Shown: in pieces, positions 5,724 through 53,273 of the stretch
Layout of the letters: every line of letters starts with the position of its first letter
Position numbering within the stretch: position 1 is the first letter of the stretch
Source of the DNA: a virus
Direction: 5' to 3' (one strand)
Length of the DNA stretch: 64,000 nucleotides
IMG/VR virus record: IMGVR_UViG_3300045988_133226
Location: 14,524-78,523 of that record
The notes under the pieces: generated by a model
Databases searched by the model: none
What the model saw: the letters and a program-made list of their open reading frames with translations, nothing else
What the model was told of the DNA's origin: nothing
Program-made: the position numbers and the translations under genes

Positions 5724-6033
5724 CTTATTACATAGCCAATTAAAGGCTTTTACTGTCTGTAATGAAGCAGACTACACCTTAACGGAAATACCCGACTATT
5801 GAAGCTAATAGTTACTTTAAATGAACGGAAAAACTGTACTACTGATTGCTAGTAGTGACGTATTGGAACGGAAAAACGGTGGCATATGGTAGATAAAAGA
5901 GTGCTTTTATCGGTGGGTTCAATTTCCACTCCGCCACTTCACACGATGGAAATTATCGTGTATAATATAAGAGAACAGTTAACTTAAAATCTGACCGCAA
6001 GGCAGTCAGTTCCTAAAAAGGATGGTGGAAATT

Positions 6034-6786
6034 ATGAAGTACAAAGAACTTATTATGACAGAACAATCTACTGGAAAGAAAACGGTGCTTTATGAGAATG
6101 AAGAGTTCAAGAACTTTGATTATCTAAGTAATCTTATGATGAAGTATGGGTATAGCGAGAATGATTATGAAAACCTTAATGATGATATTATGAGTGGAAT
6201 TGATCACTTTGATGTTATGGAATATGGAAACACAATCGAAACACTTTTATTTGAATATATTAAATATCCTGAGTGCTTTGAGATCCATAAGATTCCTGAA
6301 ATGCCTGATGGATTTACAAAAATCACTTATCATGGTTATACAATCAAATTAAATCAATATAACTGTGATTGGTACTACGGGAAGAGTTCTGACGGAAGTT
6401 TATGTGTGACAAGCACTAAGTACGATTGGAAAAAATACGACAAGATCAAGATACTAGTACAACGTGATTATTACGGAAAATTTGAAGAAGAATGGTGGAA
6501 TATTGTTGACGACAACGGAAATCTTATAGTAAAAATCATGGATGATGATATGGAAAAAGCTGTCGCAGATATTAAAGATAATCGTGATCATGCAATGGAT
6601 TTTGAAGATTGGCTATTATCAACCGATGCAGAAAAGTGGGACGTTGAATGGACTCAAGAAAATTATGATAAAGATAGGGCAGATGAGATTATCAGAAATG
6701 CTTATAATGACTACCTTAATATGCACTGGAAATATTCATGGTTGGTTAGAATAGTAGCGGAAAATATGATCAAGAAGGGAATGTAG
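6034..6786 (+). CDS. hypothetical protein
   Basis: ATG 6034 after GGTGGaaatt; follows a 300-nt non-coding gap containing a TATAAT hexamer. Confidence 0.5.
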   Translation: MKYKELIMTEQSTGKKTVLYENEEFKNFDYLSNLMMKYGYSENDYENLNDDIMSGIDHFDVMEYGNTIETLLFEYIKYPECFEIHKIPEMPDGFTKITYHGYTIKLNQYNCDWYYGKSSDGSLCVTSTKYDWKKYDKIKILVQRDYYGKFEEEWWNIVDDNGNLIVKIMDDDMEKAVADIKDNRDHAMDFEDWLLSTDAEKWDVEWTQENYDKDRADEIIRNAYNDYLNMHWKYSWLVRIVAENMIKKGM

Positions 6787-9909: not shown

Positions 9910-10005
9910 TGAATACAAATTAATATAGGTAACTAGGATACTTATGGAAAATTCCAGAGTGTCTTTTTTTATACAAATTTTTACATAAGAAAGGTGGAAT
10001 TAATT

Positions 10006-11370
10006 ATGAATCTAAACGAAATGGAAATCCCTTGCGATCCAATTTTGGATAAAGCAAAGAGAGATGAACTGGTACAGAACACAGAACTTTTGAAACAGGT
10101 TACAATCAAGCCGATCCCGTGGCTTCCTGGACGAGATTATATTACTACAGAACAGGTAGCACGATTCTTTGACGGGGATGTTGATGAAGTCAAGAGGTTG
10201 TGCACGAAGTATCGTAAAGAGTTTTTAGCAGATGGAATGGAAGTTAAGACAGTGCAGGAGATCATTGATGGTCAGAACGCAACAGCGGAAAAACAGAAGG
10301 GAAGAATCATGGTAACGTATCCGAACGGATTGAATATCTCATTCGGTTACAAGGGTGCTAAGGTGTTTACTCTTAAATGCTTGATCAGATTGTCTTTGCT
10401 GATGGAAACTTCAAATCTTGCTGAGAGCGTAAGATATTATGTTTTCATTAATGATTATATCACGATAGAAGAACAGAGAGAGCAAGAACAGGTAGAGGCA
10501 GGTGTGCAGCTTGTTGACACAACGGAAATTTTAGGAAGACGAATTGATCTGTATAGAAGTATTGAAGATCCGTTATTCCTTGCGAGAGATGTAGCGGAAT
10601 GGATTGATTACAACCAAACTGATGGAAAATACAATGTCAGTAAAATGTTAAAAACCATTGATTCTGATGAAAAATATAAGACCAAAATTTTAGGTGTGAA
10701 TAATGTTCCTACCAAAAATTTAAGTCAAGAAACTATACCTACTGATTCAAATGGAAAGAGTCGTGATCCGTTTTGGTTTCTCACAGAAGATGGGCTTTAT
10801 GAAGTGTGTATGCAGTCACGCAAACCGATTGCCAAGCAGATGAAGAAGCAGATCAAAGAATACCTTAGAAACATCCGTAAGACAGGCGGTGCAGTTGACT
10901 TTGGGAAAGAGTCACAGTTCATTGAACACTACTTCCCATCATTTTCTGAGGATGTCAAGCTTGCTATGGTAACTGATTTACGAACACAAAACAAAGAACT
11001 CAAAGAAGAGAATCAGAAATTGCAGAATGATAATAAGCTATTAGCAGCGGAAATTTTAACGTGGGATGATCGAAACAAGATGAACGCTGGGATTAGAAAG
11101 TTGGCTGCGGTTACAGGAACACAATTCTCTGTTATGTGGAACGAGCTTTATAAGAACTTGCAATACAAATATCAGATTGATGTTAAGAAACGTGGGAAGA
11201 AACCATTTCTACAGTGGATTCAGGAGCATGAATGGGATAAGGTATTAAAAGTCTTTTGTGCAATGTGTGAAGCAAGAAATCTATCTCCAACCGATATGTT
11301 CCAGCAGACAGCACCAGTGGAAAACTTATATGATAATGAAGAAAGTGAGGATGATGAAGTATGGAATTAG
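10006..11370 (+). CDS. Bro-N domain-containing antirepressor-like protein
   Basis: ATG 10006 after AAGGTGGaattaatt; internal segment DPFWFLTEDGLYEVCMQSRKPIAKQMKKQIKEYLRNIRKTGG matches the C-terminal part of the Bro-N fold. Confidence 0.5.
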   Translation: MNLNEMEIPCDPILDKAKRDELVQNTELLKQVTIKPIPWLPGRDYITTEQVARFFDGDVDEVKRLCTKYRKEFLADGMEVKTVQEIIDGQNATAEKQKGRIMVTYPNGLNISFGYKGAKVFTLKCLIRLSLLMETSNLAESVRYYVFINDYITIEEQREQEQVEAGVQLVDTTEILGRRIDLYRSIEDPLFLARDVAEWIDYNQTDGKYNVSKMLKTIDSDEKYKTKILGVNNVPTKNLSQETIPTDSNGKSRDPFWFLTEDGLYEVCMQSRKPIAKQMKKQIKEYLRNIRKTGGAVDFGKESQFIEHYFPSFSEDVKLAMVTDLRTQNKELKEENQKLQNDNKLLAAEILTWDDRNKMNAGIRKLAAVTGTQFSVMWNELYKNLQYKYQIDVKKRGKKPFLQWIQEHEWDKVLKVFCAMCEARNLSPTDMFQQTAPVENLYDNEESEDDEVWN

Positions 11371-11922: not shown

Positions 11923-13017
11923 ATGAACCTACAGTTAGTAAAAACTGAAAATTTTAACGATTTATCGTGTGATTTTTATAGTTCTGAGGATGATATTTGG
12001 ATGACGAGAAATCAAATTGGAGAAGCACTGGAATATGCAGATCCAAGAAAAGCAATCCAAAATATTCACGACAAGAACAAGAATCGGTTTGTTGGAAAAT
12101 CAAGTGTCCTCAAAACGAGGACGGTTGATGGAAGGAATAGGGAAACAGTTGTATATAATGAGCTTGGAGTATTTGAGATATGTAGATTAAGTCGTCAACC
12201 AAAAGCAGACGCCTTTATGGATTGGGCATGGAATATTATTAAATCTTATCGTCATGGAAAATTAAGAACAGGAACTCCTGTAACAACAGTAGAGCAGTTT
12301 CTTACAGAACAGACAGAACTTATGAAGCAGATGGAAAGAAACAATGAGCGTCTGTACAAGGTTACTATTAAAGGATTTAATCAGTTGGCAGACATTGTTA
12401 AAGAAATGAAAGACGAACGGAAAGAATTGTATAAGCAGATTGGCAAACCTACGAAAGGTATTCCAGTAGTGGATACGGAAAATGCTATTGCAGAATACAA
12501 ACTTAATGAATGGAAATCCAACGTGTATTCTATCATTAATGATATTCTAAAAGAATCTGATGAATTAGGAACTACTACGAGAGATATTCTTAAAGAAACA
12601 TATAGGTATCTCACTAACACATATGGAATTGTGTGGGAACAGGATCGGAAAGAATATAAAGAGAAGTATAATATTAGCGAAAGAGGTAATGTACCAACGA
12701 TTGATCTTTGTTATGACAAGTACCCTGATCTGCTAGTCAATTCATTGGAAAAACTTCTGCGACAGTTCCGCAAAGAAAATGCACAGCCTGATTGGGAAGA
12801 AATGAAGATCAAGATTACCAATTATGCTAATCATATTGGAAATAAATCTAAAGGTGGAACTTCTGTTTATCGGAAAATCTACGCTAAGATGACAGAAAAT
12901 GGTGTTAACTGGGATGAGTATGCTCATGGATTGTCTAAATCTCAGCTTATTAAAACAAATGCAACTTTATATAATAGATTTTACGAAGCAGCGGTGGAAA
13001 TTATTTCAGAAGAATAG
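11923..13017 (+). CDS. Bro-N domain antirepressor-like protein
   Basis: N-terminus MTRNQIGEALEYADPRKAIQNI...VYNELGVFEICRLSRQPKADAFMDWAW is a typical Bro-N domain; RBS AAAGGAAGacgaagaATG. Confidence 0.6.
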   Translation: MNLQLVKTENFNDLSCDFYSSEDDIWMTRNQIGEALEYADPRKAIQNIHDKNKNRFVGKSSVLKTRTVDGRNRETVVYNELGVFEICRLSRQPKADAFMDWAWNIIKSYRHGKLRTGTPVTTVEQFLTEQTELMKQMERNNERLYKVTIKGFNQLADIVKEMKDERKELYKQIGKPTKGIPVVDTENAIAEYKLNEWKSNVYSIINDILKESDELGTTTRDILKETYRYLTNTYGIVWEQDRKEYKEKYNISERGNVPTIDLCYDKYPDLLVNSLEKLLRQFRKENAQPDWEEMKIKITNYANHIGNKSKGGTSVYRKIYAKMTENGVNWDEYAHGLSKSQLIKTNATLYNRFYEAAVEIISEE

Positions 13018-14517: not shown

Positions 14518-15021
14518 GTGATTAAAATGGAAAAATCTAAAGCATATACACCAGAAAACCCATATATGTGTGTTTACGAAACAAAAGAAGATGGTATTGG
14601 CTATGCGACATTTGATAATGAACAGAGTTTATTAGAATTGTTAAATGAGTGCAGAGAAAACGGAGATAAGATTTTAGATGCCTGCAAGGTTGAGGATCGT
14701 TATGAATTCAAAGATGGAAAATTTGAGTCTAAATATCAAAGAATGTATGGATATGCAATTATCAAGGCGCTTAAAGATAAGAATAAGGAATTAGGTAATA
14801 AACTAAGAAAAGTAATTGATGAAAGGATCGCCATAGAAGAAAAACTAGCAGATACAAACATGCCGTATCAAAAATATATGTATTTATTGCGTGATAAAGA
14901 GGATATTGAAAAAGAAGAGGAAAAGTTAAGTCAAAAGAAACAAATCGTAAGAGATATGTTAGATGTCTGCTATGAAGCGGTATGGGAATGTGACGACCGT
15001 ATAGATAAAATGAAACTTTGA
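14518..15021 (+). CDS. hypothetical protein
   Basis: RBS AAAGGAGtgattaaaATG. Confidence 0.5.
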   Translation: MIKMEKSKAYTPENPYMCVYETKEDGIGYATFDNEQSLLELLNECRENGDKILDACKVEDRYEFKDGKFESKYQRMYGYAIIKALKDKNKELGNKLRKVIDERIAIEEKLADTNMPYQKYMYLLRDKEDIEKEEEKLSQKKQIVRDMLDVCYEAVWECDDRIDKMKL

Positions 15022-17356: not shown

Positions 17357-18307
17357 ATGGCAGCAACACAGTTTGAAGTTATTGAAACAGTAAACAATAA
17401 TAACGCAGAAGAATCTGAAACAAAGATTAAAAGACGCAAGGACGGAAGTCCTAAATGGACTCGATCTAACAAACAAAAAGGCGTATCATCTTTAGTGTAT
17501 CCGATTAAGAACAGAGAAAAATTTGCAGCCTTTAATGCATATTTTAGAGATCAGATTGATAAATCATATACAGAGTACAAACGATATGTAGCTGCTAGAA
17601 ATAATCTTTTGGTTGCAGTTGGAAATAATACAGCGTATCGTATTTCTGATATTGTTAGACTTAAATGGGGTGATTTATTAGACGATAAGACTCGTAAACA
17701 GGAAAAGAAAACAAAGAAATTCAGAACTGTATACTTTAATGATTTGGTAACTGAAGCAGTGGACATTTTCTTTGAAGCCGTTGCAGGAACTAAATATGAT
17801 GTCAAGATTGATGGCGAAGTGCCAATGGATGATTATGTTTTCGGAACATGTAAATCTGGCTCAGGACACATGACTGAAGCAAATGCCTTGGACTTTGTTA
17901 AAAAAGGTGCTAAAGCAGTCGGAATTGAGGATAACATTGGCACACATACATTGAGAAAAAACTTTGTATATTGGACACTTGTTGATCATAAGGACGACCA
18001 GAACGTATTGTATACGCTTATGAGATTACTGAATCATAGCAGTCCTGCAATGACGTTTTTATATGCTACAATTACAGAAGAGGAAACTCATGTATTGTTT
18101 GATGATATTGCTCAGACATATAAGGATATTATCAGCGGAGCATTTAACGGATTAAAGGAAAATGTTATTAATGTGAGTTATGATAGAGTTATGGAGATTA
18201 TCAAGTGTGCTTATGAGACAGGGAAAGATGATTCAGATAAAGACGATGGAGTGCATGAGGATAATATGCAGGCATTAAAAGAGTTGTTGGAAGGAGTTAT
18301 TTTATGA
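17357..18307 (+). CDS. tyrosine site-specific recombinase (integrase / Xer-like)
   Basis: box I RISDIVRLKWGDL, box II HTLRKNFVYWTL, LLNHSSPAMTFLYA with catalytic Tyr (R...HxxR...H...Y); RBS AGAGAGGAGagattatcATG. Confidence 0.65.
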   Translation: MAATQFEVIETVNNNNAEESETKIKRRKDGSPKWTRSNKQKGVSSLVYPIKNREKFAAFNAYFRDQIDKSYTEYKRYVAARNNLLVAVGNNTAYRISDIVRLKWGDLLDDKTRKQEKKTKKFRTVYFNDLVTEAVDIFFEAVAGTKYDVKIDGEVPMDDYVFGTCKSGSGHMTEANALDFVKKGAKAVGIEDNIGTHTLRKNFVYWTLVDHKDDQNVLYTLMRLLNHSSPAMTFLYATITEEETHVLFDDIAQTYKDIISGAFNGLKENVINVSYDRVMEIIKCAYETGKDDSDKDDGVHEDNMQALKELLEGVIL

Positions 18308-27794: not shown

Positions 27795-28631
27795 ATGATT
27801 AGTATTAATGGAGTCCCAGTTGTTCCAGAATCTTTTCCAGATGGAACGCAAAAAATTGATTTTTCGTTAGGCGTGATATCTCAAGAAATCATAGAAAACA
27901 AGACAGTGTATATCACATGGTTATATGAGTCAGATCAAGAGTTATTTTCTTTGTTGTGTATTTCTAAAAATATTAAAGAACATTTTCCGTGGTTACAACA
28001 AGCATTAGTGATGCCGTATATACCAAATGCAAGATTTGACAGAGTAAAAGAGCCAAGCGAATGCTTTACATTAAAATATTTTGCAGAAATTATTAATAGT
28101 CTTGGATTTGTAAGAGTTATTGTAACTGATCCACATTCCGATGTATCTACTGCATTGATTGATCATGTAGAAGTAATCCGTGGAGCATCATATATTACAC
28201 AAACTTGTAGCAAAGTCCTTAAAGCAGAACCATCAAGAAATCTCGTAATTTATTTCCCAGATAGCGGGTCACTAAAAAGATATTCTGAATTTGTATCAGA
28301 TGATTATCCGATTGTCTATGGAATTAAAAATCGTGATTGGAAGACAGGAGAAATTCTTGGTATTGAGATTCATGGAGATACAGATAAATTAGATGAGAAT
28401 ACAGCAATTCTAATGATTGATGATATTTGTAGTAAGGGTGGCACATTCTATTATGGATCAAAAGAATTAAACAAATACGGTTGTAAAGATATGTATTTAT
28501 ATGTTAGTCACTGTGAAAATACAATTCTTGATGGCGAATTATTAAAGGAAGATAGTTTGTTTAAAAAAGTGTATACGACACGTAGTATTTTTACAAAAGA
28601 GCATGAGAAAGTTGAGGTGTTAGATTTATGA
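27795..28631 (+). CDS. ribose-phosphate pyrophosphokinase (Prs)-like type I phosphoribosyltransferase-fold protein
   Basis: PRPP/ribose-phosphate binding loop MIDDICSKGGT (compare DDxxDTGGT of Prs); RBS tAAGGGGGTGataaagaATG. Confidence 0.65.
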   Translation: MISINGVPVVPESFPDGTQKIDFSLGVISQEIIENKTVYITWLYESDQELFSLLCISKNIKEHFPWLQQALVMPYIPNARFDRVKEPSECFTLKYFAEIINSLGFVRVIVTDPHSDVSTALIDHVEVIRGASYITQTCSKVLKAEPSRNLVIYFPDSGSLKRYSEFVSDDYPIVYGIKNRDWKTGEILGIEIHGDTDKLDENTAILMIDDICSKGGTFYYGSKELNKYGCKDMYLYVSHCENTILDGELLKEDSLFKKVYTTRSIFTKEHEKVEVLDL

Positions 28632-30097
28632 AACAGACAAACCCAATGTTATTAATTGATTTTTACAAAGCAGTTCATGCTGAAATGTTACCAAAAGGTA
28701 TTACAAAATCTGTTTCTTATTTTACTCCACGTATGAGCAGAGTAAAACGATGGAATGAAGTAGCCATGTTTGGATTACAAGGATTCATTAAAGAGTATTT
28801 GGTCGATTATTTTAATGAGTATTTTTTCTTTGAATATAAAAACAAAGCAATTGGTACTTATAAGACAGTAATGGATGCAACTCTTGGAGAAGGTACATAT
28901 GGATTACAGAAAATCGAAGATTTATATGATCTTGGCTATCTTCCAATTGAGATTAAGGCTCTTCCTGAAGGAACTTTAGTACCAATGCATGTGCCGATGT
29001 TTAGTATTGAGAATACACATAAAGATTTTGCATGGTTGCCACAGGCATTAGAAAGCTTAATTTCCGCAGAAATGTGGCATCCGATGATTGCTGCAACTGT
29101 TGGACATACATACAGACAGATTGTTAACAAGTTTTATGAAATGACTTGTGATGATGATATTCCAAAATCTAAGGCATTAGGGGCTTTCGATTTTCGTGGC
29201 GAAGAATGTTTACAGTCTGCGATTAAAGCAGGAGCAGGATGGTGTTTATCATTCTTAAATACAGCTACGGTTCCAACAATTTCATATTTAGAGAGAAATT
29301 ATAATTGTGATTGTACGAAAGAACCAGTTGCTTTTGGTAGTCCGTCAACGGAACATGCAGTAGTTTGTAGCAATTATGCAATTGATGGTGATGAAGAGAC
29401 TTTAATCAAAAGATTGCTAACAGAGATTTACCCAAATACAAGTTTTTCTGCGGTATTGGATTCATATGATTATTGGAATGTCGTAGAAAATATTCTTCCA
29501 AAGCTTAAAAATGAGATTATGAATCACAACGGATGTCTTCTTGCCAGAGGTGACTCAGGAGATTGTGTAGACGTAGTAACCAGAACAGTATTCAAATTAT
29601 GGGAAGAGTTTGGTGGAACTACAAATACCAAAGGATATAAAGTATTAGATCCTCATGTAAAAGCAATTTACGGAGATTCAATTACAGTGCAGAGATGTGA
29701 GCAGATTTATGACATCTTAGAGAAAAATGGATTCGCAGCAAACAATGTTGCACTTGGCGTTGGATCATTCTCATTCCAGTGCATCGAAGAAGATGGAGTT
29801 TTAAAACCATTTACAAGAGATACATTTAGCAGTTGTATTAAAGCAACGTATTGTGAGATTGATGGCAAACCATATCCAATTTTCAAGAATCCAAAAGATG
29901 GCGGATTTAAGAAATCTCAGAGAGGTTTATGTCATGTCTATACAGGATCAGACGGTAAATTGACATTTAAAGATGGATATACTTCAGAAAATCTTCCAAT
30001 GAATAACCTGCTTGAGACAGTATTTAGAGATGGCAAATTGGTAAAAGAACAGTCATTACAGGAGATTAGAAGAGTATTAAATGAAGGAGAATTTTAA
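28628..30097 (+). CDS. nicotinamide phosphoribosyltransferase (NAMPT/NadV) family protein
   Basis: LDSYDYWN, ARGDSGD, KGYKVLDPHVKAIYGDS and FKNPKDGGFKKSQRG run parallel to DSYDIYN / RPDSGN / KGYKLLPPYLRVIQGDG / FKDPVADPNKRSKKG of NAMPT enzymes; ATGA overlap with the upstream gene. Confidence 0.7.
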   Translation: MKQTNPMLLIDFYKAVHAEMLPKGITKSVSYFTPRMSRVKRWNEVAMFGLQGFIKEYLVDYFNEYFFFEYKNKAIGTYKTVMDATLGEGTYGLQKIEDLYDLGYLPIEIKALPEGTLVPMHVPMFSIENTHKDFAWLPQALESLISAEMWHPMIAATVGHTYRQIVNKFYEMTCDDDIPKSKALGAFDFRGEECLQSAIKAGAGWCLSFLNTATVPTISYLERNYNCDCTKEPVAFGSPSTEHAVVCSNYAIDGDEETLIKRLLTEIYPNTSFSAVLDSYDYWNVVENILPKLKNEIMNHNGCLLARGDSGDCVDVVTRTVFKLWEEFGGTTNTKGYKVLDPHVKAIYGDSITVQRCEQIYDILEKNGFAANNVALGVGSFSFQCIEEDGVLKPFTRDTFSSCIKATYCEIDGKPYPIFKNPKDGGFKKSQRGLCHVYTGSDGKLTFKDGYTSENLPMNNLLETVFRDGKLVKEQSLQEIRRVLNEGEF

Positions 30098-30114
30098 GAG
30101 AGGAGATATAAAAC

Positions 30115-38431: not shown

Positions 38432-38752
38432 ATGGGACCCAATATTAATTTTGCAATTGCATATGCGATAGGATGTCTTATTGTTGAAGTTATTGTGATT
38501 CTAAGATATGAAAAAAAGATAGATAAATTAAGGGAATCGAATAGAAGACTGATTCTTGATAATATATCGTACAGAGCTGTTTTAAGCGTAACGCCAAACA
38601 CTACATATAATAAGGAAGAAACTCGTTCAGATGTTAAGGACGCAGTAAAGTATGCAATGAAGAAAAGTCATCCAGATAATGGTGGCAGCGCAGATGATTT
38701 TAGAAAATTCAGAGAGTTATATGAAGAAATGGAAGGTAAGACTCATGAGTAA
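38432..38752 (+). CDS. membrane protein with C-terminal J-domain-like segment (HPD motif)
   Basis: ATG 38432 after GTGAGGTGattaag; N-terminal TM helix; VKDAVKYAMKKSHPDNGGSADDFRKFRELYEEM resembles a DnaJ J-domain helix II-III with the HPD tripeptide. Confidence 0.35.
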   Translation: MGPNINFAIAYAIGCLIVEVIVILRYEKKIDKLRESNRRLILDNISYRAVLSVTPNTTYNKEETRSDVKDAVKYAMKKSHPDNGGSADDFRKFRELYEEMEGKTHE

Positions 38753-38935: not shown

Positions 38936-40564
38936 ATGGCTAAAAAACAAAATAAAAACACGATGCAGATCAATAGAAAAATTACTTTAATTCCAGTTGC
39001 AAGTGACAATGATGGTTGGAAGAAGAAGATGAATATATATCTTGAAAAATTTTATTTTGACAAGAAAATTAAAGCCAAAGAAAGACAAATCAAAAATACG
39101 AGTAAACCAGAAAGAAAAGAAGAATACAAACAGCAGCTTACAGAATATAAAAAGCAACAAGAACAGTTCTTAAATGGTGAGCTTGAAGATTATACAAAGC
39201 AGATGGTTATGAGTTATACATATGATTTGGTAAGAGACTGTATGGAAAGTGAAGCAAGACAGAAGAATTTCATAATGTCTTATATGTTCTCAGAGATGAT
39301 CAGAGAAAAGGTCTGCTACTTAAAAAACAAGAAAGAAAAGGAAAAATGGGTAAATGACAATATCAATGTTGCATTTAGAGTTAAAGGATCACCAAAGGGA
39401 AGTATCTTTGACGATGTTGAGATTTATAGTCCATTAAGAGCATTGAGTATTCAGGGATATACTCAGGAATTAAAGGGGAGAGTTAAGAAATTCGCCACTG
39501 ATGGTGGGTTAGATGGGAAGTTGGCAGTCGATAATTATAAATTAGATTCGCCATTTCATATGTCAAAGCAAGGATTTGATATTGTTCATGAATATGAAGA
39601 CTTGACAGAGCTTAAAAAGAATATTGGTAAATCAAGTTGTGAAATATATGTGAATCTTGGCAACGGTGGCGTTCCTACATTCGCAAGATTCCAATTAGAT
39701 TTTGGGCATAAAGGAAATCGAGAAGAGTTAATTTCTACAATTACAAAAGTATTTACTGGTGAATATAAAGTATGCGGAAGTTCAATTCAGATTAATAAAA
39801 AGAATAAGATTATATTAAATCTTGGACTTGAAATTCCAAAAAGACTTACTGAATTAGATGAAAACACGGTAGTTGGAGTCGATCTTGGGTTAGCAGTTCT
39901 AGCTGTATGCTCTTTAAATAATAATCAGTATAAGAAAGAGTATATTGGTGACGGAGAAGCTTTTGTAAAACAGCGAGGCAAAATTCAAAAAGAAAAACAG
40001 AGATTACAAAAAGCATTAAAACTTTCAAAGGGTGGACATGGAAGAAAAAGAAAAATGTTAGCCTTAGAAAGATTCAAGGAAAGAGAAGCAAATTTTGTAA
40101 ATACTTATTGTCATAGAATCAGTAAAAAAGTTGTTGAATATGCACTTAAGAATAATGCCAAATATATCAATATTGAGAATTTAAAAGGATATGATTCTAG
40201 TAAATTTATTCTGAGAAATTGGAGTTTTTACCAGCTTCAGCAAGATATTACATATAAAGCAGAAAGATATGGTATTGAAGTAAGAAAAATCAATCCTGCA
40301 TTTACTTCTCAAGTATGTAGTTTCTGTGGACATTGGGAATCTGGACAGAGAATAAATCAGAAAACTTTTAAATGCGGGAATCCAAATTGCAAGAGTCATA
40401 ATCTTAAATTTTTTAACGCTGATTATAATGCTGCAAGAAATATTGCAATGTCAACATTATTTACGAGTGATAAATATAAGTTCGGAGAAGAATCTTTGCA
40501 AAAGGCAGCAGACTATTACGGAATTGACTTAGAAATTGATTCTGACGATCAAGAAATTGCTTAA
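38936..40564 (+). CDS. compact type V CRISPR effector-like RuvC nuclease (Cas12f/TnpB-like, 542 aa)
   Basis: RuvC-I TVVGVDLGLAVLA (Asp316, nt 39881-39883); RuvC-II KYINIENLKG (Glu414, nt 40175-40177); INPAFTSQVCSFCGH...CGNPNC zinc finger; RuvC-III FFNADYNAARNIA (Asp496, nt 40421-40423); RBS AAAGGAGtgaagtagatATG; followed by CRISPR mini-arrays on the same strand. Confidence 0.75.
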   Translation: MAKKQNKNTMQINRKITLIPVASDNDGWKKKMNIYLEKFYFDKKIKAKERQIKNTSKPERKEEYKQQLTEYKKQQEQFLNGELEDYTKQMVMSYTYDLVRDCMESEARQKNFIMSYMFSEMIREKVCYLKNKKEKEKWVNDNINVAFRVKGSPKGSIFDDVEIYSPLRALSIQGYTQELKGRVKKFATDGGLDGKLAVDNYKLDSPFHMSKQGFDIVHEYEDLTELKKNIGKSSCEIYVNLGNGGVPTFARFQLDFGHKGNREELISTITKVFTGEYKVCGSSIQINKKNKIILNLGLEIPKRLTELDENTVVGVDLGLAVLAVCSLNNNQYKKEYIGDGEAFVKQRGKIQKEKQRLQKALKLSKGGHGRKRKMLALERFKEREANFVNTYCHRISKKVVEYALKNNAKYINIENLKGYDSSKFILRNWSFYQLQQDITYKAERYGIEVRKINPAFTSQVCSFCGHWESGQRINQKTFKCGNPNCKSHNLKFFNADYNAARNIAMSTLFTSDKYKFGEESLQKAADYYGIDLEIDSDDQEIA

Positions 40565-40633
40565 ATTATCGACTGTATATGGCATGTTTTGGATGAGGTG
40601 CCGAACTTCATCGATCATAGAATATATGATTAT

Positions 40634-40669
40634 GCCAAAAGTGAGGTGTGAAAATGCACTCACTAAAAT
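40634..40669 (+). ncRNA. conserved hairpin element, copy 1 (GCCAAAAGTGAG-loop-CTCACTAAAAT); candidate array leader or tracr-like RNA
   Basis: one of four copies with an invariant 6-bp stem AGTGAG/CTCACT and a variable 11-13 nt loop, each 23-57 nt upstream of a mini-array. Confidence 0.4.
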
Positions 40670-40725
40670 TTGTGTAATTGAATAAAGCATAAAGTTTTGC
40701 GTTGTATACATAATAAAGATTTGAG

Positions 40726-40827
40726 GTTTTAGAACAATTGAAATTTACACAGATACAAAACAGTGCAGGAATGTTGATACCAGATAGTAATGTTTTAGAA
40801 CCACTAGACATTATATAATCATAAAAT
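40726..40827 (+). CRISPR. CRISPR mini-array 1: 36-nt repeat / 30-nt spacer / 3'-degenerate terminal repeat
   Basis: R1 GTTTTAGAACAATTGAAATTTACACAGATACAAAAC (40726-40761); spacer AGTGCAGGAATGTTGATACCAGATAGTAAT (40762-40791); terminal repeat GTTTTAGAACcactagacatt... keeps only the 5' part. Confidence 0.6.
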
Positions 40828-40994
40828 ATAGTATTAAACAAACATTTACGTAAATATTAAGAATATTTTAGTGTTTACGATAATATATGCAGGCTGATAA
40901 AGCCTGTTGTAGTTGCACAAAGTATTGTGCATGGCACGTTTCGAGAAATATTATCGCCAATATAGTATTTCTGGTCACGGAGTATCGTGACTGT

Positions 40995-41028
40995 GCCAAA
41001 AGTGAGATTATATGATACTCACTAAAAT
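40995..41028 (+). ncRNA. conserved hairpin element, copy 2
   Basis: GCCAAAAGTGAGattatatgataCTCACTAAAAT. Confidence 0.4.
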
Positions 41029-41070
41029 GTATGTTGTTAGGTCTTTATATTGGTCAGTATGGGATTTGAG

Positions 41071-41238
41071 GGTTAAGACCTATCAAAAATAACATACGTA
41101 CGAAACGCATTTATCGGGTCATAAATCAATAACTTTGGTTAAGACCTATCAAAAATAACATACGTACGAAACTTGATTGAATCATCCTTTGAGATGTTAG
41201 GCAGTCAAGACCTATTAAAAAATAAAAGATGTGTTTGG
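41071..41238 (+). CRISPR. CRISPR mini-array 2: two identical 36-nt repeats, two 30-nt spacers, degenerate terminal repeat
   Basis: GGTTAAGACCTATCAAAAATAACATACGTACGAAAC at 41071-41106 and 41137-41172; spacers GCATTTATCGGGTCATAAATCAATAACTTT and TTGATTGAATCATCCTTTGAGATGTTAGGC; terminal repeat AGTCAAGACCTATTAAAAAAT... is 3'-degenerate. Confidence 0.75.
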
Positions 41239-41311
41239 TTAAATTAAAATTGCACATTATGTGTATGGTGTGTTTTGGAGATTATATCTCGTTCATCGAA
41301 TAGATGGATAC

Positions 41312-41346
41312 GCCAAAAGTGAGGTTTGGATAACACTCACTAAAAT
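41312..41346 (+). ncRNA. conserved hairpin element, copy 3
   Basis: GCCAAAAGTGAGgtttggataacaCTCACTAAAAT. Confidence 0.4.
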
Positions 41347-41385
41347 CTATGTGATTATGTAACAAAGTTAGACAAAAGAATTTGG

Positions 41386-41487
41386 GTTTGATACTTATTA
41401 AAAATTACATAGGTACAAAACGTTTGTGTTTTATAGTCATGCAATGAAGCAGATTGATACCTATAAAAATTGTATTTTAATACATGG
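41386..41487 (+). CRISPR. CRISPR mini-array 3: repeat / 30-nt spacer / degenerate repeat
   Basis: GTTTGATACTTATTAAAAATTACATAGGTACAAAAC (41386-41421); spacer GTTTGTGTTTTATAGTCATGCAATGAAGCA; terminal GATTGATACCTATAAAAATTgtattttaatacatgg. Confidence 0.55.
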
Positions 41488-41530
41488 CGTGTTCTGGAGA
41501 ATTTATCTCGCTTATTTATTTGATAAGTAC

Positions 41531-41565
41531 GCCAAAAAGTGAGACCGAGTGGTACTCACTAAAAT
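41531..41565 (+). ncRNA. conserved hairpin element, copy 4
   Basis: GCCAAAAAGTGAGaccgagtggtaCTCACTAAAAT. Confidence 0.4.
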
Positions 41566-41587
41566 CTATGTTAATTGAATATTTGAG

Positions 41588-41689
41588 GTACAAGACCTAG
41601 CAGATTTAACATAGGTACAGAACCCCTCATCTGTAAGGATTTCATCTAACTCAGTACAAGACCTATCAAATTTAACAAAATCAAAAGGA
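41588..41689 (+). CRISPR. CRISPR mini-array 4: repeat / 30-nt spacer / degenerate repeat
   Basis: GTACAAGACCTAGCAGATTTAACATAGGTACAGAAC (41588-41623); spacer CCCTCATCTGTAAGGATTTCATCTAACTCA; terminal GTACAAGACCTATCAAATTTAACAaaatcaaaagga. Confidence 0.6.
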
Positions 41690-41869: not shown

Positions 41870-42217
41870 ATGAACCACTTCTTATATATTGAATCACGGG
41901 AAGAAGAGAATACATCCCTCGATTCTAAACGTGTTTTATTAAATGAAGAAAATTACAAACATATTATTTCATCATTAGATCATTATCCACCGACGGCAGA
42001 TGAAGTTAAGAGAGCAATTTGTATTTTGATAGGACGATTGATCTATAGAAGCGTTTGGAATATGGAATCTGATATTGATAGTTTAAATATGAGTTTATCC
42101 CCGCCAAAAGAAATGACGGTTGCAGAAATCGAAAAAGAACTCGGTCATAAAGTAAAAATTGTAGAGGAGAAAGAATGCCAATGGCAAAAAAGAAACAAGG
42201 AATGTCGTTTGAAATGA
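41870..42217 (+). CDS. hypothetical protein
   Basis: RBS GGAGAGatataATG. Confidence 0.45.
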   Translation: MNHFLYIESREEENTSLDSKRVLLNEENYKHIISSLDHYPPTADEVKRAICILIGRLIYRSVWNMESDIDSLNMSLSPPKEMTVAEIEKELGHKVKIVEEKECQWQKRNKECRLK

Positions 42218-42486
42218 TGATGCAAAATATGGAAATTAATCCAAGACAATTGTATCGTCGTAGTTCGTGGAAGAAGACACGAACAACTTATGATTATGTG
42301 TTTATGATGTGCGAAGAAGAATTAAATGAGATTATTCCATTTGATAAAAAATATAAAATGAAACCACTCTTATGTAGAGACCAAAATGGAGTTATAACAT
42401 TGGGATGGTTGCCTACACAAGAGGATATTTTCGCAAATGATTGGGTTGAGCAAGGATGGGATTTTAACAGTAAAAGGAAGAGGTGA
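42175..42486 (+). CDS. hypothetical protein
   Basis: RBS GAGGAGaaagaATG; overlaps the upstream gene by about 40 nt. Confidence 0.4.
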   Translation: MPMAKKKQGMSFEMMMQNMEINPRQLYRRSSWKKTRTTYDYVFMMCEEELNEIIPFDKKYKMKPLLCRDQNGVITLGWLPTQEDIFANDWVEQGWDFNSKRKR

Positions 42487-42494
42487 GTAATTAA

Positions 42495-42779
42495 TTGAAT
42501 TTTATAAAAGCAATGACTGCAATAAAAAAAGACAAAACGACTATAAGAAGAGGCATTTGGGGAAAGGAAAAGTATTTGAAAATTTATTCGTCAGAATTAA
42601 CTAATGTTTATTTTGAGTGTAATGATATGGGTGAATATAAGCCAGATTCAATTATTTTTTTATTTGATAAAGAAAACGCAGAAGTTTGGATACCTCTTGC
42701 GGAAGATGTATATGCAGATGACTGGGAAATATATGTTGAGTCAATTAATAAAGGTGAGCAGATAAAGGAGGAAAAATAA
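42495..42779 (+). CDS. hypothetical protein
   Basis: TTG start after AGGAAGAGGTGAG (or ATG at 42513). Confidence 0.4.
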   Translation: MNFIKAMTAIKKDKTTIRRGIWGKEKYLKIYSSELTNVYFECNDMGEYKPDSIIFLFDKENAEVWIPLAEDVYADDWEIYVESINKGEQIKEEK

Positions 42780-43732
42780 TGAAGTGTTTTTATCATGTTG
42801 ATCAAGACGGAATCGTGTCTGGATTCTACGTCAGAAAAGCTTGTGAACAGCGAGGTTTAGCATTTGAACCAGAGGACTTCCGAAAAATTAATTACGGTAT
42901 GAAATTCCCGTTTCATGACATTGAGCAGGATGAATTTGTGTTTATTGTAGACTACAGTATTGAGCCAGAAGAGATGTGGCAGTTGCTCAGTATTACAAAG
43001 AATGTATTTTGGATCGACCATCATCAGTCTACGATTGAAGCGTATAAAGATTTCAAGTGTGATGTAAAAGGAATCAGAATTACTGGAGCGGGTATTTCAG
43101 GAGCGAATTTGACATGGTTATATTTTAAATATATGTGTGATGAAAATTGGGAGCAAATTGAGAGGACGGATGAGAAAAATGTAAAAAGATTACTCAATAT
43201 ATATAAATATAAAGCAGATTATCCAAAACTGGCAGAATATACAGCCATGTGGGATACATTTTATTTTGGTGAAACGTCAAAACAATTCGTAAAAGCATTT
43301 CACTATGCATTTGAATCGTATGATTTTGATGCGTTAAGTCCATTGCTAAACACGTTAAATAAAGATCAAGGAATTTATGAAGCAGCAAAAATTATTGGTG
43401 ATATGATAGCAGATGGCTTATCAATTATTGAGTATTTAGCAGCAAATGCAGAACAATATCTTAGAGCATATGGTTTTGAAACCATATTTGAGGGACATAA
43501 AGTCTATGCAATCAACAGAGCGTTAATCAATTCTGATTTCTTCGAATCTATTGATGCTTCTAAATACGATATGTTTATCGGTTTTTCATTCAATGGAAGT
43601 ATGTGGGAATATCAGCTACGATCCGCAGAACAAGATAAAGTAAATGTGTATGAGCTTGCTGTGAAATATGGTGGTGGCGGTCATCCAAATGCAGCTGGGT
43701 TCAGATGTGATAAATATGTATTAGGAGTGTGA
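42779..43732 (+). CDS. DHH/DHHA1-family phosphoesterase (NrnA-like nanoRNase / pAp phosphatase-like)
   Basis: motif I HVDQDGIVSGFY, motif III VFWIDHHQST (DHH), DHHA1 motif YGGGGHPNAAGF; 317 aa, typical NrnA size; RBS AAAGGAGGaaaaataATG. Confidence 0.65.
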   Translation: MKCFYHVDQDGIVSGFYVRKACEQRGLAFEPEDFRKINYGMKFPFHDIEQDEFVFIVDYSIEPEEMWQLLSITKNVFWIDHHQSTIEAYKDFKCDVKGIRITGAGISGANLTWLYFKYMCDENWEQIERTDEKNVKRLLNIYKYKADYPKLAEYTAMWDTFYFGETSKQFVKAFHYAFESYDFDALSPLLNTLNKDQGIYEAAKIIGDMIADGLSIIEYLAANAEQYLRAYGFETIFEGHKVYAINRALINSDFFESIDASKYDMFIGFSFNGSMWEYQLRSAEQDKVNVYELAVKYGGGGHPNAAGFRCDKYVLGV

Positions 43733-52151: not shown

Positions 52152-53273
52152 TTGGCAGAAAACACAAAATCTAAAAGACTTTTCAACTTACCAGAAACTA
52201 AAGGTACATTTCAGTTAGAAGGATTAATCACTGATTGTGCAAAAGACGACTTTTACAAGGAAGGTAAAACGCAGAAAGGCAAAGATAAACGAACGTTATC
52301 TTTCGGAGTTAAGGTAGAACCTGACGTAAAAGTTAAATGTAAAATCCAGGCATTTGAAAAACCAAAAGTTTATTTCCTTAAAAGAGAAAAGAACGGTAAA
52401 AAAACTACATACAAAACTAAGGATATTCCTTGGGCTGACCGTTTTAAATCTGTTAAGGAGCTTGGGCTTGGAGATGATTGGTCATTAATTGGCTCAAGAG
52501 TTGGTCTTGAGAAAGAGACTAATGACAAAGGACAGGTCGTTAACAAAAAACTGGTATTAGATCCATTTGATTTAACAAAATATGCTTCAGAACATATGGC
52601 AGACAACCAGAGTGTATTCATTAAAGGAGATATTGAATATGGAAGTTTTACTGGGGAAAACGGAACTAAACGCCAGTGGTCAAGAATGTCTCCAACACAG
52701 ATTAGTTTAACAAGTAAAGAAATTGATCTTGATGATGAGGAGCATAAAGTAAGATCTGATTTTAAACAGACAATGGTTTTTACAAATATTGAACAGGAAA
52801 AAGAAGATGATGTGCCAACAGGACGTTTTATCGTTTATGGAAAGATTATTGGTTATTCATCTGTTGATGATGCTGAATTCTATATGACAAATAAGAAATT
52901 AGCAAAAACTTTTAAGAAGAATGTTAAGCCATATTCATCTATTGAAGTTTGGGGACATATTAAGACAGAAATTCAGACAGAAGAAGTTGAAGTAGAAGAT
53001 GATGGATGGGGAGAAGCAGATCCTACAAAGAGAGTCGTAGATTCTGCAAGAAAAGAACTTATTATCACTGGCGCAAGCAAAGATAGTATTGATTCAGAAA
53101 CATACACCAGAGAAGCAATTGATGCAGCGATTGAAGCTATTAAAAAGGCAGAAGCAGCAAGAAGTGATTTCGGTGAGTCTGATGACGAACAGACAAGTAG
53201 CTCTTCTACAGATGATGAATGGGGATCTGGTTTTGATGATTCTTCAGATGATGCTGAAGGCGATGTTTGGTAA
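52152..53273 (+). CDS. possible ssDNA-binding protein (acidic C-terminal tail)
   Basis: TTG start after AAAGAGGtaaattta; C-terminal DDEQTSSSSTDDEWGSGFDDSSDDAEGDVW resembles SSB acidic tails; first gene of the replication module. Confidence 0.35.
   Translation: MAENTKSKRLFNLPETKGTFQLEGLITDCAKDDFYKEGKTQKGKDKRTLSFGVKVEPDVKVKCKIQAFEKPKVYFLKREKNGKKTTYKTKDIPWADRFKSVKELGLGDDWSLIGSRVGLEKETNDKGQVVNKKLVLDPFDLTKYASEHMADNQSVFIKGDIEYGSFTGENGTKRQWSRMSPTQISLTSKEIDLDDEEHKVRSDFKQTMVFTNIEQEKEDDVPTGRFIVYGKIIGYSSVDDAEFYMTNKKLAKTFKKNVKPYSSIEVWGHIKTEIQTEEVEVEDDGWGEADPTKRVVDSARKELIITGASKDSIDSETYTREAIDAAIEAIKKAEAARSDFGESDDEQTSSSSTDDEWGSGFDDSSDDAEGDVW

Follow-up and report, generated by a model that had tools for sequence, protein, structure and literature searches.

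The 64,000-nucleotide (nt) stretch of viral DNA analyzed here (hereafter the window; IMG/VR record IMGVR_UViG_3300045988_133226, positions 14,524 to 78,523) carries a gene for a Cas12f-like protein followed by four modules, each composed of a putative guide-RNA scaffold and a short CRISPR array. With a probability of about 0.88, these modules provide the guide RNAs of a type V-F (Cas12f) CRISPR system borne by the phage and are arranged as four tandem cassettes in which scaffold and repeat form a pseudoknot. The contact in question joins a six-base motif near the 5′ end of each scaffold, GUUYYG, to the last bases of the repeat, and this predicted pairing is supported both within the window and in its relatives. 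The decisive evidence for it is covariation in external related loci.

Pairing of the motif with the repeat end

As a perfect reverse complement, each of the four motifs matches the six bases that end the repeat of its own module, and all four lie where an earlier note on this DNA, made from the letters alone, had placed them:

Module 1, + strand: motif GTTTTG at 40586–40591; first repeat end CAAAAC at 40756–40761; 6/6 Watson–Crick pairs
Module 2, + strand: motif GTTTCG at 40938–40943; repeat ends CGAAAC at 41101–41106 and again at 41167–41172; 6/6 Watson–Crick pairs
Module 3, + strand: motif GTTTTG at 41272–41277; repeat end CAAAAC at 41416–41421; 6/6 Watson–Crick pairs
Module 4, + strand: motif GTTCTG at 41491–41496; repeat end CAGAAC at 41618–41623; 6/6 Watson–Crick pairs

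The gaps between the motif and a conserved AGTGAG/CTCACT hairpin measured 48, 57, 40, and 41 nt in modules 1–4, respectively, in agreement with the 40–57 nt given in that note. The note had also considered the matching changes in modules 2 and 4 difficult to account for without base pairing. The matching changes are present, but they are not decisive alone. The complementarity internal to the window is suggestive but weak evidence, because GUUUUG can also pair with CGAAAC or CAGAAC via G-U wobble. A U-to-C change that faces an A-to-G change can proceed by way of a G-U wobble, which is tolerated, and only 2 of the 24 possible motif/repeat assignments within the window are perfect. GTTTCG occurs twice in the window, and one of the two copies occupies the motif slot.

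A blastn search of the INPHARED phage collection gave no match to the locus. IMG/VR contained 254 relatives of it, of which the best 80 were kept, and a protein search returned more than 1,000 effector homologues at E ≤ 1e-10, mostly on contigs of 100–200 kb. Arrays were located with a repeat profile in 95 fetched loci. Most relatives have several such cassettes of scaffold plus array, located to one side of cas12f or to both; the 80 distinct loci were distributed as follows:

4 cassettes per locus: 3 loci
3 cassettes per locus: 35 loci
2 cassettes per locus: 28 loci
1 cassette per locus: 6 loci
No cassette detected: 8 loci

An extra cassette upstream of cas12f is present in many relatives (L003, 3533–3930; at a position below 2501 in L028–L092), and such upstream cassettes are often of another pseudoknot class than the downstream ones (e.g., AUUCAG/CUGAAC); the window has none upstream.

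Distant relatives possess a simpler scaffold, in which the first stem (P1) is a plain hairpin, e.g., CGGGUG-AUUUUG-CACCCG, and the 6-nt loop of this hairpin corresponds in position to the motif of the window. The pairing joins loop positions 2–6 to repeat positions −2 to −6, which adjoin the guide; in the clade of the window, position −1 takes part as well. The pairing was found to be kept through at least 10 motif/repeat-end classes in about 80 related phage loci. The classes are listed below, with loop positions 2–6 given first and repeat positions −6 to −2 second:

UUUUG with CAAAA
UUUCG with CGAAA
UUCUG with CAGAA, also CGGAA with one wobble
UUUGG with CCAAA
UUCAG with CUGAA
CUUUG with CAAAG
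UUUUA with UAAAA
UUCGA with UCGAA
UUUGA with UCAAA
CCUUU with AAAGG, register shifted by one

This natural covariation table of ten classes shows which pseudoknot sequences are tolerated and is useful for the design of compact Cas12f guide RNAs.

The association was quantified by several routes. A context search, in which any of 16 pentamers was accepted after a 6-nt arm that pairs downstream, recovered the cognate pentamer in 110 of 141 modules and in 10 more in a shifted register. Tabulated against the motifs, the repeat-end classes gave a nearly diagonal matrix, the sole frequent off-diagonal entries being motifs that overlap the cognate one by one base. For example, CTGAA repeats were accompanied by TTCAG in 13 of 14 cases and by TTTTG in none, and TAAAA repeats by TTTTA in all 10. 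A repeat-independent rule, which locates P1 and the motif without using the repeat sequence, replaced earlier finders that over-extended stems into the motif or chose distant false stems. Under this rule, 61 of 66 distinct modules showed five of five pairs, three showed four, and two showed three; both of the last trace to a wrong P1 or a wrong repeat-end call. Among modules in which automatic P1 finding failed, those that were read by eye and had a recognizable scaffold showed the loop-to-repeat-end pairing.

For pair counting, four segments picked out by the repeat-independent rule were concatenated: the 5′ arm of P1, the motif, the 3′ arm of P1, and the end of the repeat. The paired fraction was 89.8%, compared with 71.2% in shuffles (0/500) and 27–51% when the partners were slid by 1–3 columns; the covariation score was 0.535 against 0.192 in shuffles. 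The shuffle control overstates significance as the sequences share descent, a weakness from which the slid-partner control and the count of distinct pair types are free. RNAalifold, run on the unedited natural alignment of 25 minimal modules, independently recovered P1, the conserved hairpin (P2), and an anti-repeat:repeat duplex, with compensatory changes in 15 of 21 pairs; five of six pairs in that duplex were changed on both sides. For the five core pairs of the pseudoknot, all 125 of 125 cells of this alignment were paired, and changes on both sides were seen in 3, 0, 1, 5, and 5 sequences, i.e., at four of the five positions. Covariance and fold analysis of the four modules together with homologous loci, which the earlier note had named as a check, found that the pairing covaries and recovered a common fold.

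These results bear on a reading at the DNA level, according to which the motif is a leftover or signal (e.g., what is left of a partly palindromic repeat terminus, a signal of the leader or for integration, or a promoter segment) with inherited complementarity. The repeats do start with GTTTTAG or GTTTGA, which resemble the motif, and the modules arose by duplication, so that motif and repeat were inherited together. However, co-inheritance creates no two-sided complementary changes, and at least 10 classes keep Watson–Crick pairing. Moreover, the 5′ ends of the repeats do not track their 3′ ends (GGTTAAG occurs with CGAAAC, and GTACAAG with CAGAAC), the motif always occupies the loop, or the junction, of a stem that itself covaries, and the same arrangement is found in experimentally tested guide RNAs. 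We regard this reading as extremely improbable.

The cas12f-like gene, the predicted scaffold, and known guide RNAs

The open reading frame (ORF) of the effector ends 16 nt before the first module:

38936–40564, + strand: cas12f-like effector gene, 542 amino acids (aa); RuvC residues D316/E414/D496; zinc finger CxxC...CxxxxC

Its Pfam matches are Cas12f1-like_TNB (E = 8.9e-19) and OrfB_IS605 (PF07282, PF01385), and its NCBIfam match is guided_TnpB (8.7e-47), with a sub-threshold match to Cas12f2. The closest solved structure is that of Al3Cas12f (PDB 9nzo/9nzr; E = 1.8e-64), followed by 8hr5, RhCas12f (9nzp), two more Cas12f-like proteins (8j3r/8j12/8j1j), and AsCas12f (7wju/8dzj); OsCas12f (9nzq) ranked lower (E = 4.9e-30). 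No solved structure matched the N-terminal ∼150 aa. An alignment of 30 homologues showed conservation of D316, E414, and D496 as well as of C461/C464/C480/C485. The size of the protein, the split RuvC, and the zinc-finger (TNB) insertion fit the type V-F criterion (about 400–700 aa). Judged from these matches the setting is a type V-F-like system, and hence a trans-activating CRISPR RNA (tracrRNA) is expected nearby. The adaptation genes cas1, cas2, and cas4 occur in many V-F1 loci but are no requirement for the effector. Among 30 ORFs of the window, none matched a Cas1-like family in a scan that included all neighbors of the locus and left outside it seven ORFs of at least 230 aa and most small ORFs. 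The covariation in homologues and the identity of the adjacent gene together bear out the proposal of the earlier note that the motif pairs with the 3′ end of its own repeat in a tracrRNA-like RNA of the Cas12f type.

Each module was folded as a single RNA, from P1 through the end of the first repeat. The minimum free energy (MFE) structure had the same architecture in all four modules, with z-scores of −5.08, −5.77, −4.63, and −4.67 for modules 1–4, respectively (−4.6 to −5.8). The predicted order of elements is the P1 5′ arm, the unpaired GUUYYG, two inserted hairpins, the P1 3′ arm, an AAA linker, P2, a UAAAA linker, and the anti-repeat. P1 is a stem of 6 base pairs (bp), TGGCRY/RYGCCA, whose arms covary between modules. 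The motif lies directly 3′ of the P1 5′ arm and is unpaired in the predicted common fold, and the last 7 nt of the repeat are likewise unpaired in the MFE folds of all four modules; as both are single-stranded, they are left free to pair with each other.

The earlier note had called the motif a tracrRNA anti-repeat. The pairing with the repeat stands, but the motif makes a short pseudoknot contact, and the anti-repeat proper is a different segment. This main anti-repeat of 9–19 nt lies immediately 3′ of the AGTGAG/CTCACT hairpin and pairs with the middle of the repeat. At the sequence level, duplexes of 9–19 bp were found in all four modules, and they covary between modules, with UGUGUA/UACACA in module 1 and UAUGU/ACAUA in the other three. 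The hairpin itself corresponds to P2 (GUGAG/CUCAC). Of the roles the earlier note had offered for it, that of a structural handle agrees with the data and that of a terminator does not: since published Cas12f guide RNAs have a conserved GAG...CUC stem with which it aligned, it is most readily assigned as a conserved scaffold stem of the tracrRNA. CTCACTAAAAT might also serve as a −10 element, but its conservation can be explained without such a role. The features of the four cassettes (scaffolds from the MFE folds) are as follows:

40580–40680, + strand: module 1 scaffold; P1 40580–40585 with 40632–40637; inserted hairpins 40592–40612 and 40613–40631; P2 40640–40664; anti-repeat 40668–40680
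40726–40827, + strand: module 1 mini-array; repeat 40726–40761; spacer 40762–40791; degenerate terminal repeat from 40792
40932–41045, + strand: module 2 scaffold; P1 40932–40937 with 40993–40998; inserted hairpins 40944–40972 and 40973–40992; P2 41001–41023; anti-repeat 41027–41045 with 41075–41099
41071–41238, + strand: module 2 mini-array; repeats 41071–41106 and 41137–41172; spacers 41107–41136 and 41173–41202; degenerate repeat 41203–41238
41266–41356, + strand: module 3 scaffold; P1 41266–41271 with 41310–41315; P2 41318–41341; anti-repeat 41345–41356 with 41403–41414
41386–41487, + strand: module 3 mini-array; repeat 41386–41421; spacer 41422–41451; degenerate repeat from 41452, overlapping the start of module 4
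41485–41574, + strand: module 4 scaffold; P1 41485–41490 with 41529–41534; P2 41538–41560; anti-repeat 41564–41574 with 41606–41616
41588–41689, + strand: module 4 mini-array; repeat 41588–41623; spacer 41624–41653; degenerate repeat 41654–41689

The arrays thus consist of 36-nt repeats with 30-nt spacers, one or two spacers each, and every array is closed by a degenerate repeat; the module 1 repeat was also recovered by an nhmmer repeat profile (E = 3.6e-5), as was the array of module 2. A short extra hairpin was seen 5′ of P1 in modules 2–4 (40914–40931, 41249–41263, and 41471–41484), for example TGCACA-AAGTAT-TGTGCA. Similar hairpins occur in relatives (CATACA-AAA-TGTATG), and the Al3Cas12f single-guide RNA (sgRNA) also has a 5′ hairpin before P1. 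The scaffold probably begins, in truth, with this extra hairpin at its 5′ end. Rfam gave no match in the cassette region, its sole match in the window at the gathering score being a transfer RNA (tRNA) at 33626–33763. Two candidate elements elsewhere were set aside as chance matches within coding sequence: one near 38746, upstream of cas12f, which resembles the hairpin and has no P1, and a weak repeat-profile match at 52554 (E = 0.6).

The three guide RNAs whose sequences were compared contain the same contact (PMC13186708 Supplementary Data). That of Al3Cas12f has GGCGC-GUUGGA-GCGCC with the repeat end UCCAAC (6 bp), that of RhCas12f CGGCUG-AUUUAG-CAGCCG with ...GUAAAU (5 bp, AUUUA:UAAAU), and that of OsCas12f GGGCCG-ACUUCC-CGGCCC with ...UUGAAGG (4 bp, CUUC:GAAG). 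In all three, the stretch that runs from P1 through its loop and 3′ arm to the A-rich linker and GAG aligns with the window modules. The pseudoknot has been described in the literature as conserved in all Cas12 and TnpB guide RNAs, and it is reported to be recognized by the protein in TnpB, Cas12f, and Cas12a (ISDra2 TnpB structure, PMC10097598). Hence, the motif is the already known Cas12/TnpB guide-RNA pseudoknot element and not the main anti-repeat. By itself, the pairing does no more than confirm, in a phage family that is new and very large, the structure-derived rule that the guide-adjacent end of the repeat has to pair with a 5′ loop of the scaffold.

The motif and the repeat end might alternatively pair as RNA for processing or regulation, by masking the repeat end, forming an RNase site, or acting in attenuation, outside the effector-bound scaffold. 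The shortness of the pairing (5–6 bp) and a competing local pairing in module 3 would suit such a role. It is nevertheless very unlikely, as the homologous position in ISDra2 TnpB is a pseudoknot recognized by the protein (PMC10097598) and the sgRNAs of the closest solved relatives contain the same pairing.

Among known systems, the Cas12f1 group (Al3Cas12f, i.e., MG119-28, together with Rh, Os, As, and 8hr5) shares with the window a homologous effector (E = 1e-41 to 1e-64), T-rich 5′ protospacer flanks as far as the few protospacers of the window and its relatives show, and, in the same order, a 5′ hairpin with a loop pairing to the repeat end, an A-rich linker, a GAG...CUC stem, and an anti-repeat. 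The window differs in having four paralogous scaffolds in cis with diverged repeats, compared with one tracrRNA and one array, and in the growth of the P1 loop, in its clade, into a three-way junction with two inserted hairpins. Its locus is also phage-borne, without cas1 among the ORFs scanned, and its protein is longer (542 aa). The omega-RNA of TnpB in IS200/IS605 elements is single, overlaps the 3′ end of tnpB, ends at the right end of the transposon, and has no CRISPR repeats. The scaffold of the window starts at 40580, the stop codon lies at 40564 with no gene overlap, and there are four scaffolds per gene; moreover, its guides come from repeat-flanked CRISPR spacers and not from sequence past a transposon end, and no transposase or insertion sequence ends were seen in the locus. 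What the omega-RNA of ISDra2 shares with it is the pairing of nucleotides just 5′ of the guide with a 5′-proximal scaffold segment, and a scaffold encoded immediately 3′ of the nuclease gene and on its strand (PMC10097598). An identity as TnpB with the omega-RNA of IS200/IS605 does not agree with the repeat-spacer arrays, the scaffold beyond the stop codon, and the presence of four scaffolds.

The phage-encoded "Cas12 hacker" is likewise a miniature Cas12 with a tracrRNA:CRISPR RNA (crRNA) pseudoknot, formed by crRNA positions −1 to −4 (AAAC) with 5′ UUUG of the tracrRNA and conserved in that family; Cas12 tracrRNAs characteristically pair with repeat 3′ ends (10.1101/2025.01.20.633832). Unlike the effector of the window, it belongs to another family, absent from the PDB matches of the window protein, forms a heterodimer with host thioredoxin, and is described with one tracrRNA and no tandem cassettes. 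No relevant description of multiple or tandem tracrRNAs was found in the literature searched, outside of which stands the main survey of virus-encoded CRISPR systems, so that a prior description is possible.

RNA form, exceptions, and cassette specificity

In the proposed mechanism, each cassette would be read from the + strand, first a tracrRNA-like scaffold and immediately after it an array of one or two spacers, whose repeat variant is specific to the cassette. The anti-repeat 3′ of P2 would make the first contact by pairing with the middle of the repeat (9–19 bp). The GUUYYG motif, kept unpaired just inside P1, would make the second by pairing with the last 5–6 nt of the repeat adjoining the guide and thereby form the pseudoknot. 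A Cas12f dimer may then bind the scaffold, with the spacer-derived 3′ segment guiding the cutting of DNA that bears a 5′ YTTG-like protospacer-adjacent motif (PAM). The direct observations are the sequence features, the covariation, the homology of the protein and the 5′ scaffold to characterized Cas12f, and the protospacer matches; transcription, processing, protein binding, and cleavage are what we infer.

The pairing may be real and each cassette still be expressed as one fused transcript, i.e., a natural single guide resembling the TnpB omega-RNA with a long internal loop. Scaffold and array lie on the same strand, too close together for a promoter of the array's own; in most relatives, P2 and the repeat are 40–60 nt apart; and single-transcript folds are strongly favored. 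The gap between anti-repeat and repeat is just 13 nt in module 4, and the scan found no terminator-like site between scaffold and array, which argues for co-transcription of scaffold and crRNA. On the other hand, module 2 and many relatives have arrays of 2–6 repeats, whose later repeats would need a scaffold in trans or an alternative fold, and the anti-repeat:repeat duplex resembles the RNase III substrate of other tracrRNA systems. In those systems, RNase III cleaves anti-repeat:repeat duplexes. Fused expression is thus a serious possibility, if one a little short of even odds; it concerns the form of the RNA and not the pairing, and can coexist with the pseudoknotted Cas12f guide proposed here. 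Were the cassettes expressed in this fused form, they would represent single-guide RNAs of natural origin and a living example of a step between the TnpB omega-RNA and split tracrRNA/crRNA.

Several observations weigh against the reading of the locus as a Cas12f guide-RNA region with a conserved six-base contact. The MFE fold of module 3 extends P1 by three pairs into the motif and sequesters half of it. Loop position 1 and repeat position −1 are unpaired in 19 of 25 relatives; of the six pairs claimed in the earlier note, five core pairs hold across relatives and the sixth, a G-C pair, is restricted to the clade of the window. A sigma-70 scan gave 19 sites against 15.8 expected, and the promoter/terminator scan did no better than shuffles. 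Four of the five window spacers (1, 2a, 2b, and 3) had no match in fetched loci or in phage records, with which all five were compared, nor in further searches of IMG/VR for 1 and 2a, of species genomes for 1 and 3, and of metagenomes for 2b. Finally, in module 4 of the related locus L002, whose Cas12f is 99% identical, a CGGAAC repeat occurs with GUUCUG, giving one U-G wobble, and in module 2 of L001, GTTTCG occurs with a CAGAAC repeat, giving one C-A mismatch. Either perfect pairing is no absolute requirement, or these mismatched L001 and L002 cassettes are recent recombinants.

At 5990–6260, L001 carries a chimeric cassette composed of a module-2-type scaffold and a module-4-type array; modules 3 and 4 are otherwise missing, and the locus has two cassettes only. 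This chimera looks like a recent deletion by recombination, with its junction at the conserved P2/CTCACTAAAAT segment. In L018 (Cas12f 63% identical), GTTTTG is the motif of a cassette that couples a module-2-like scaffold with a module-3-like repeat, CAAAAC, and the GTTCTG/CAGAAC pair of module 4 is also retained. From the cases of L001, L002, and L018 it follows that the pairing was maintained over long times and was occasionally broken by cassette shuffling. The specificity of the main anti-repeats was less marked. In a 4 × 4 matrix of the window modules, the cognate duplex was the most stable in each row, with near ties between modules 1 and 3 and between modules 2 and 4; across the family, cognate pairs had a score of 10.2 of 13 compared with 9.3 for non-cognate ones. 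Strict orthogonality is therefore not claimed, the cognate advantage being only modest.

A broader proposal can be made tentatively, with the odds somewhat against it: the cassettes would be autonomous, co-transcribed natural single guides, distinct and partly orthogonal paralogues kept for long, with one Cas12f loaded from several cassettes that evolve independently and recombine, without an adaptation module, in phage-versus-phage warfare that extends to a rival's cas12f. The long-kept pair cited for it is GTTCTG/CAGAAC, present in phages with Cas12f 63% identical. If true, the organization of the locus would stand between the one-RNA design of TnpB and the classical tracrRNA plus array. The organization is of interest in that most relatives have two to four cassettes around one cas12f, scaffold and repeat have co-diverged, and recombination chimeras are found at the conserved stem. 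While the pseudoknot mechanism is known, the tandem, co-diverged tracrRNA/array cassettes behind one phage nuclease are the less ordinary part, and not a new kind of system.

Spacers, targets, and neighboring genes

Spacers were found to differ between phages with 99% identical cas12f genes. The module 4 spacer matched the metagenomic contigs L097 (27/30) and L098 (26/30), with the 23 repeat-proximal bases exact in both and the 5′ flanks TTTG and CTTG. Its target is a 95-aa phage-type gene corresponding to PHROG 6244 or to the C-terminal region of the RecE-like PHROG 434. A spacer of L002 (6176–6205) matched the antisense strand of cas12f in a clade of 60–62%, with 29 of 30 positions in L022 (3690–3719), where the 5′ flank of the protospacer is TTTG; the match is also present in L020, L021, L023–L026, and L071. 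The cas12f of L002 itself has diverged at the matching site. The CRISPR of one phage is thus aimed at the CRISPR effector gene of another. The three protospacer families gave the flanks TTTG, CTTG, and TTTG, which are too few to define a PAM; the orientation, with the repeat 5′, the guide 3′, and a T-rich 5′ flank, fits type V. From these matches, the targets appear to be other mobile elements, pointing to competition between mobile elements. Spacer 4 also shows a complementarity of 16/17 to the cas12f gene of the window itself, which has no further extension and was judged to be due to chance, and most other spacer matches in related loci were to flanking sequence after terminal repeats and not to real protospacers.

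Virus-borne mini-CRISPR arrays are used in conflicts between viruses and usually rely on host Cas proteins. The arrays described here resemble them in being very short, in lying on a virus, and in having spacers that match related viruses (as that of L002 matches a rival cas12f). Unlike them, they are accompanied by an effector and scaffolds that the phage itself encodes.

Directly downstream of the cassettes, a protein similar to Tad2 (Thoeris anti-defense 2) is encoded at 42175–42486 (E = 3.8e-8), followed by a weak match to a DHH/DHHA1 phosphoesterase at 42779–43732. The CRISPR locus appears to have a counter-defense neighborhood. A phosphoribosyltransferase of the NAMPT/NAPRTase family (28628–30097) adjoins a nicotinamide adenine dinucleotide (NAD) synthase (30115–30885), and this gene pair (28628–30885) looks like a phage NAD+ salvage pathway. 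Phage NAD+ salvage has been reported to counter NAD-depleting defenses. The Rfam tRNA match noted above spans 138 nt against a 71-position model (46.4 bits), and ARAGORN found no tRNA in the window; the match may represent a tRNA that contains an intron or another large insertion, or else something that resembles a tRNA. All 27 ORFs of at least 230 aa in the window are on the + strand, its guanine-cytosine (GC) content is about 33%, and its GC skew is uniformly positive (0.17–0.33). Proteins with BRO-N domains are encoded at 9994–11370 and 11923–13017, and a phage integrase-family protein at 17357–18307.

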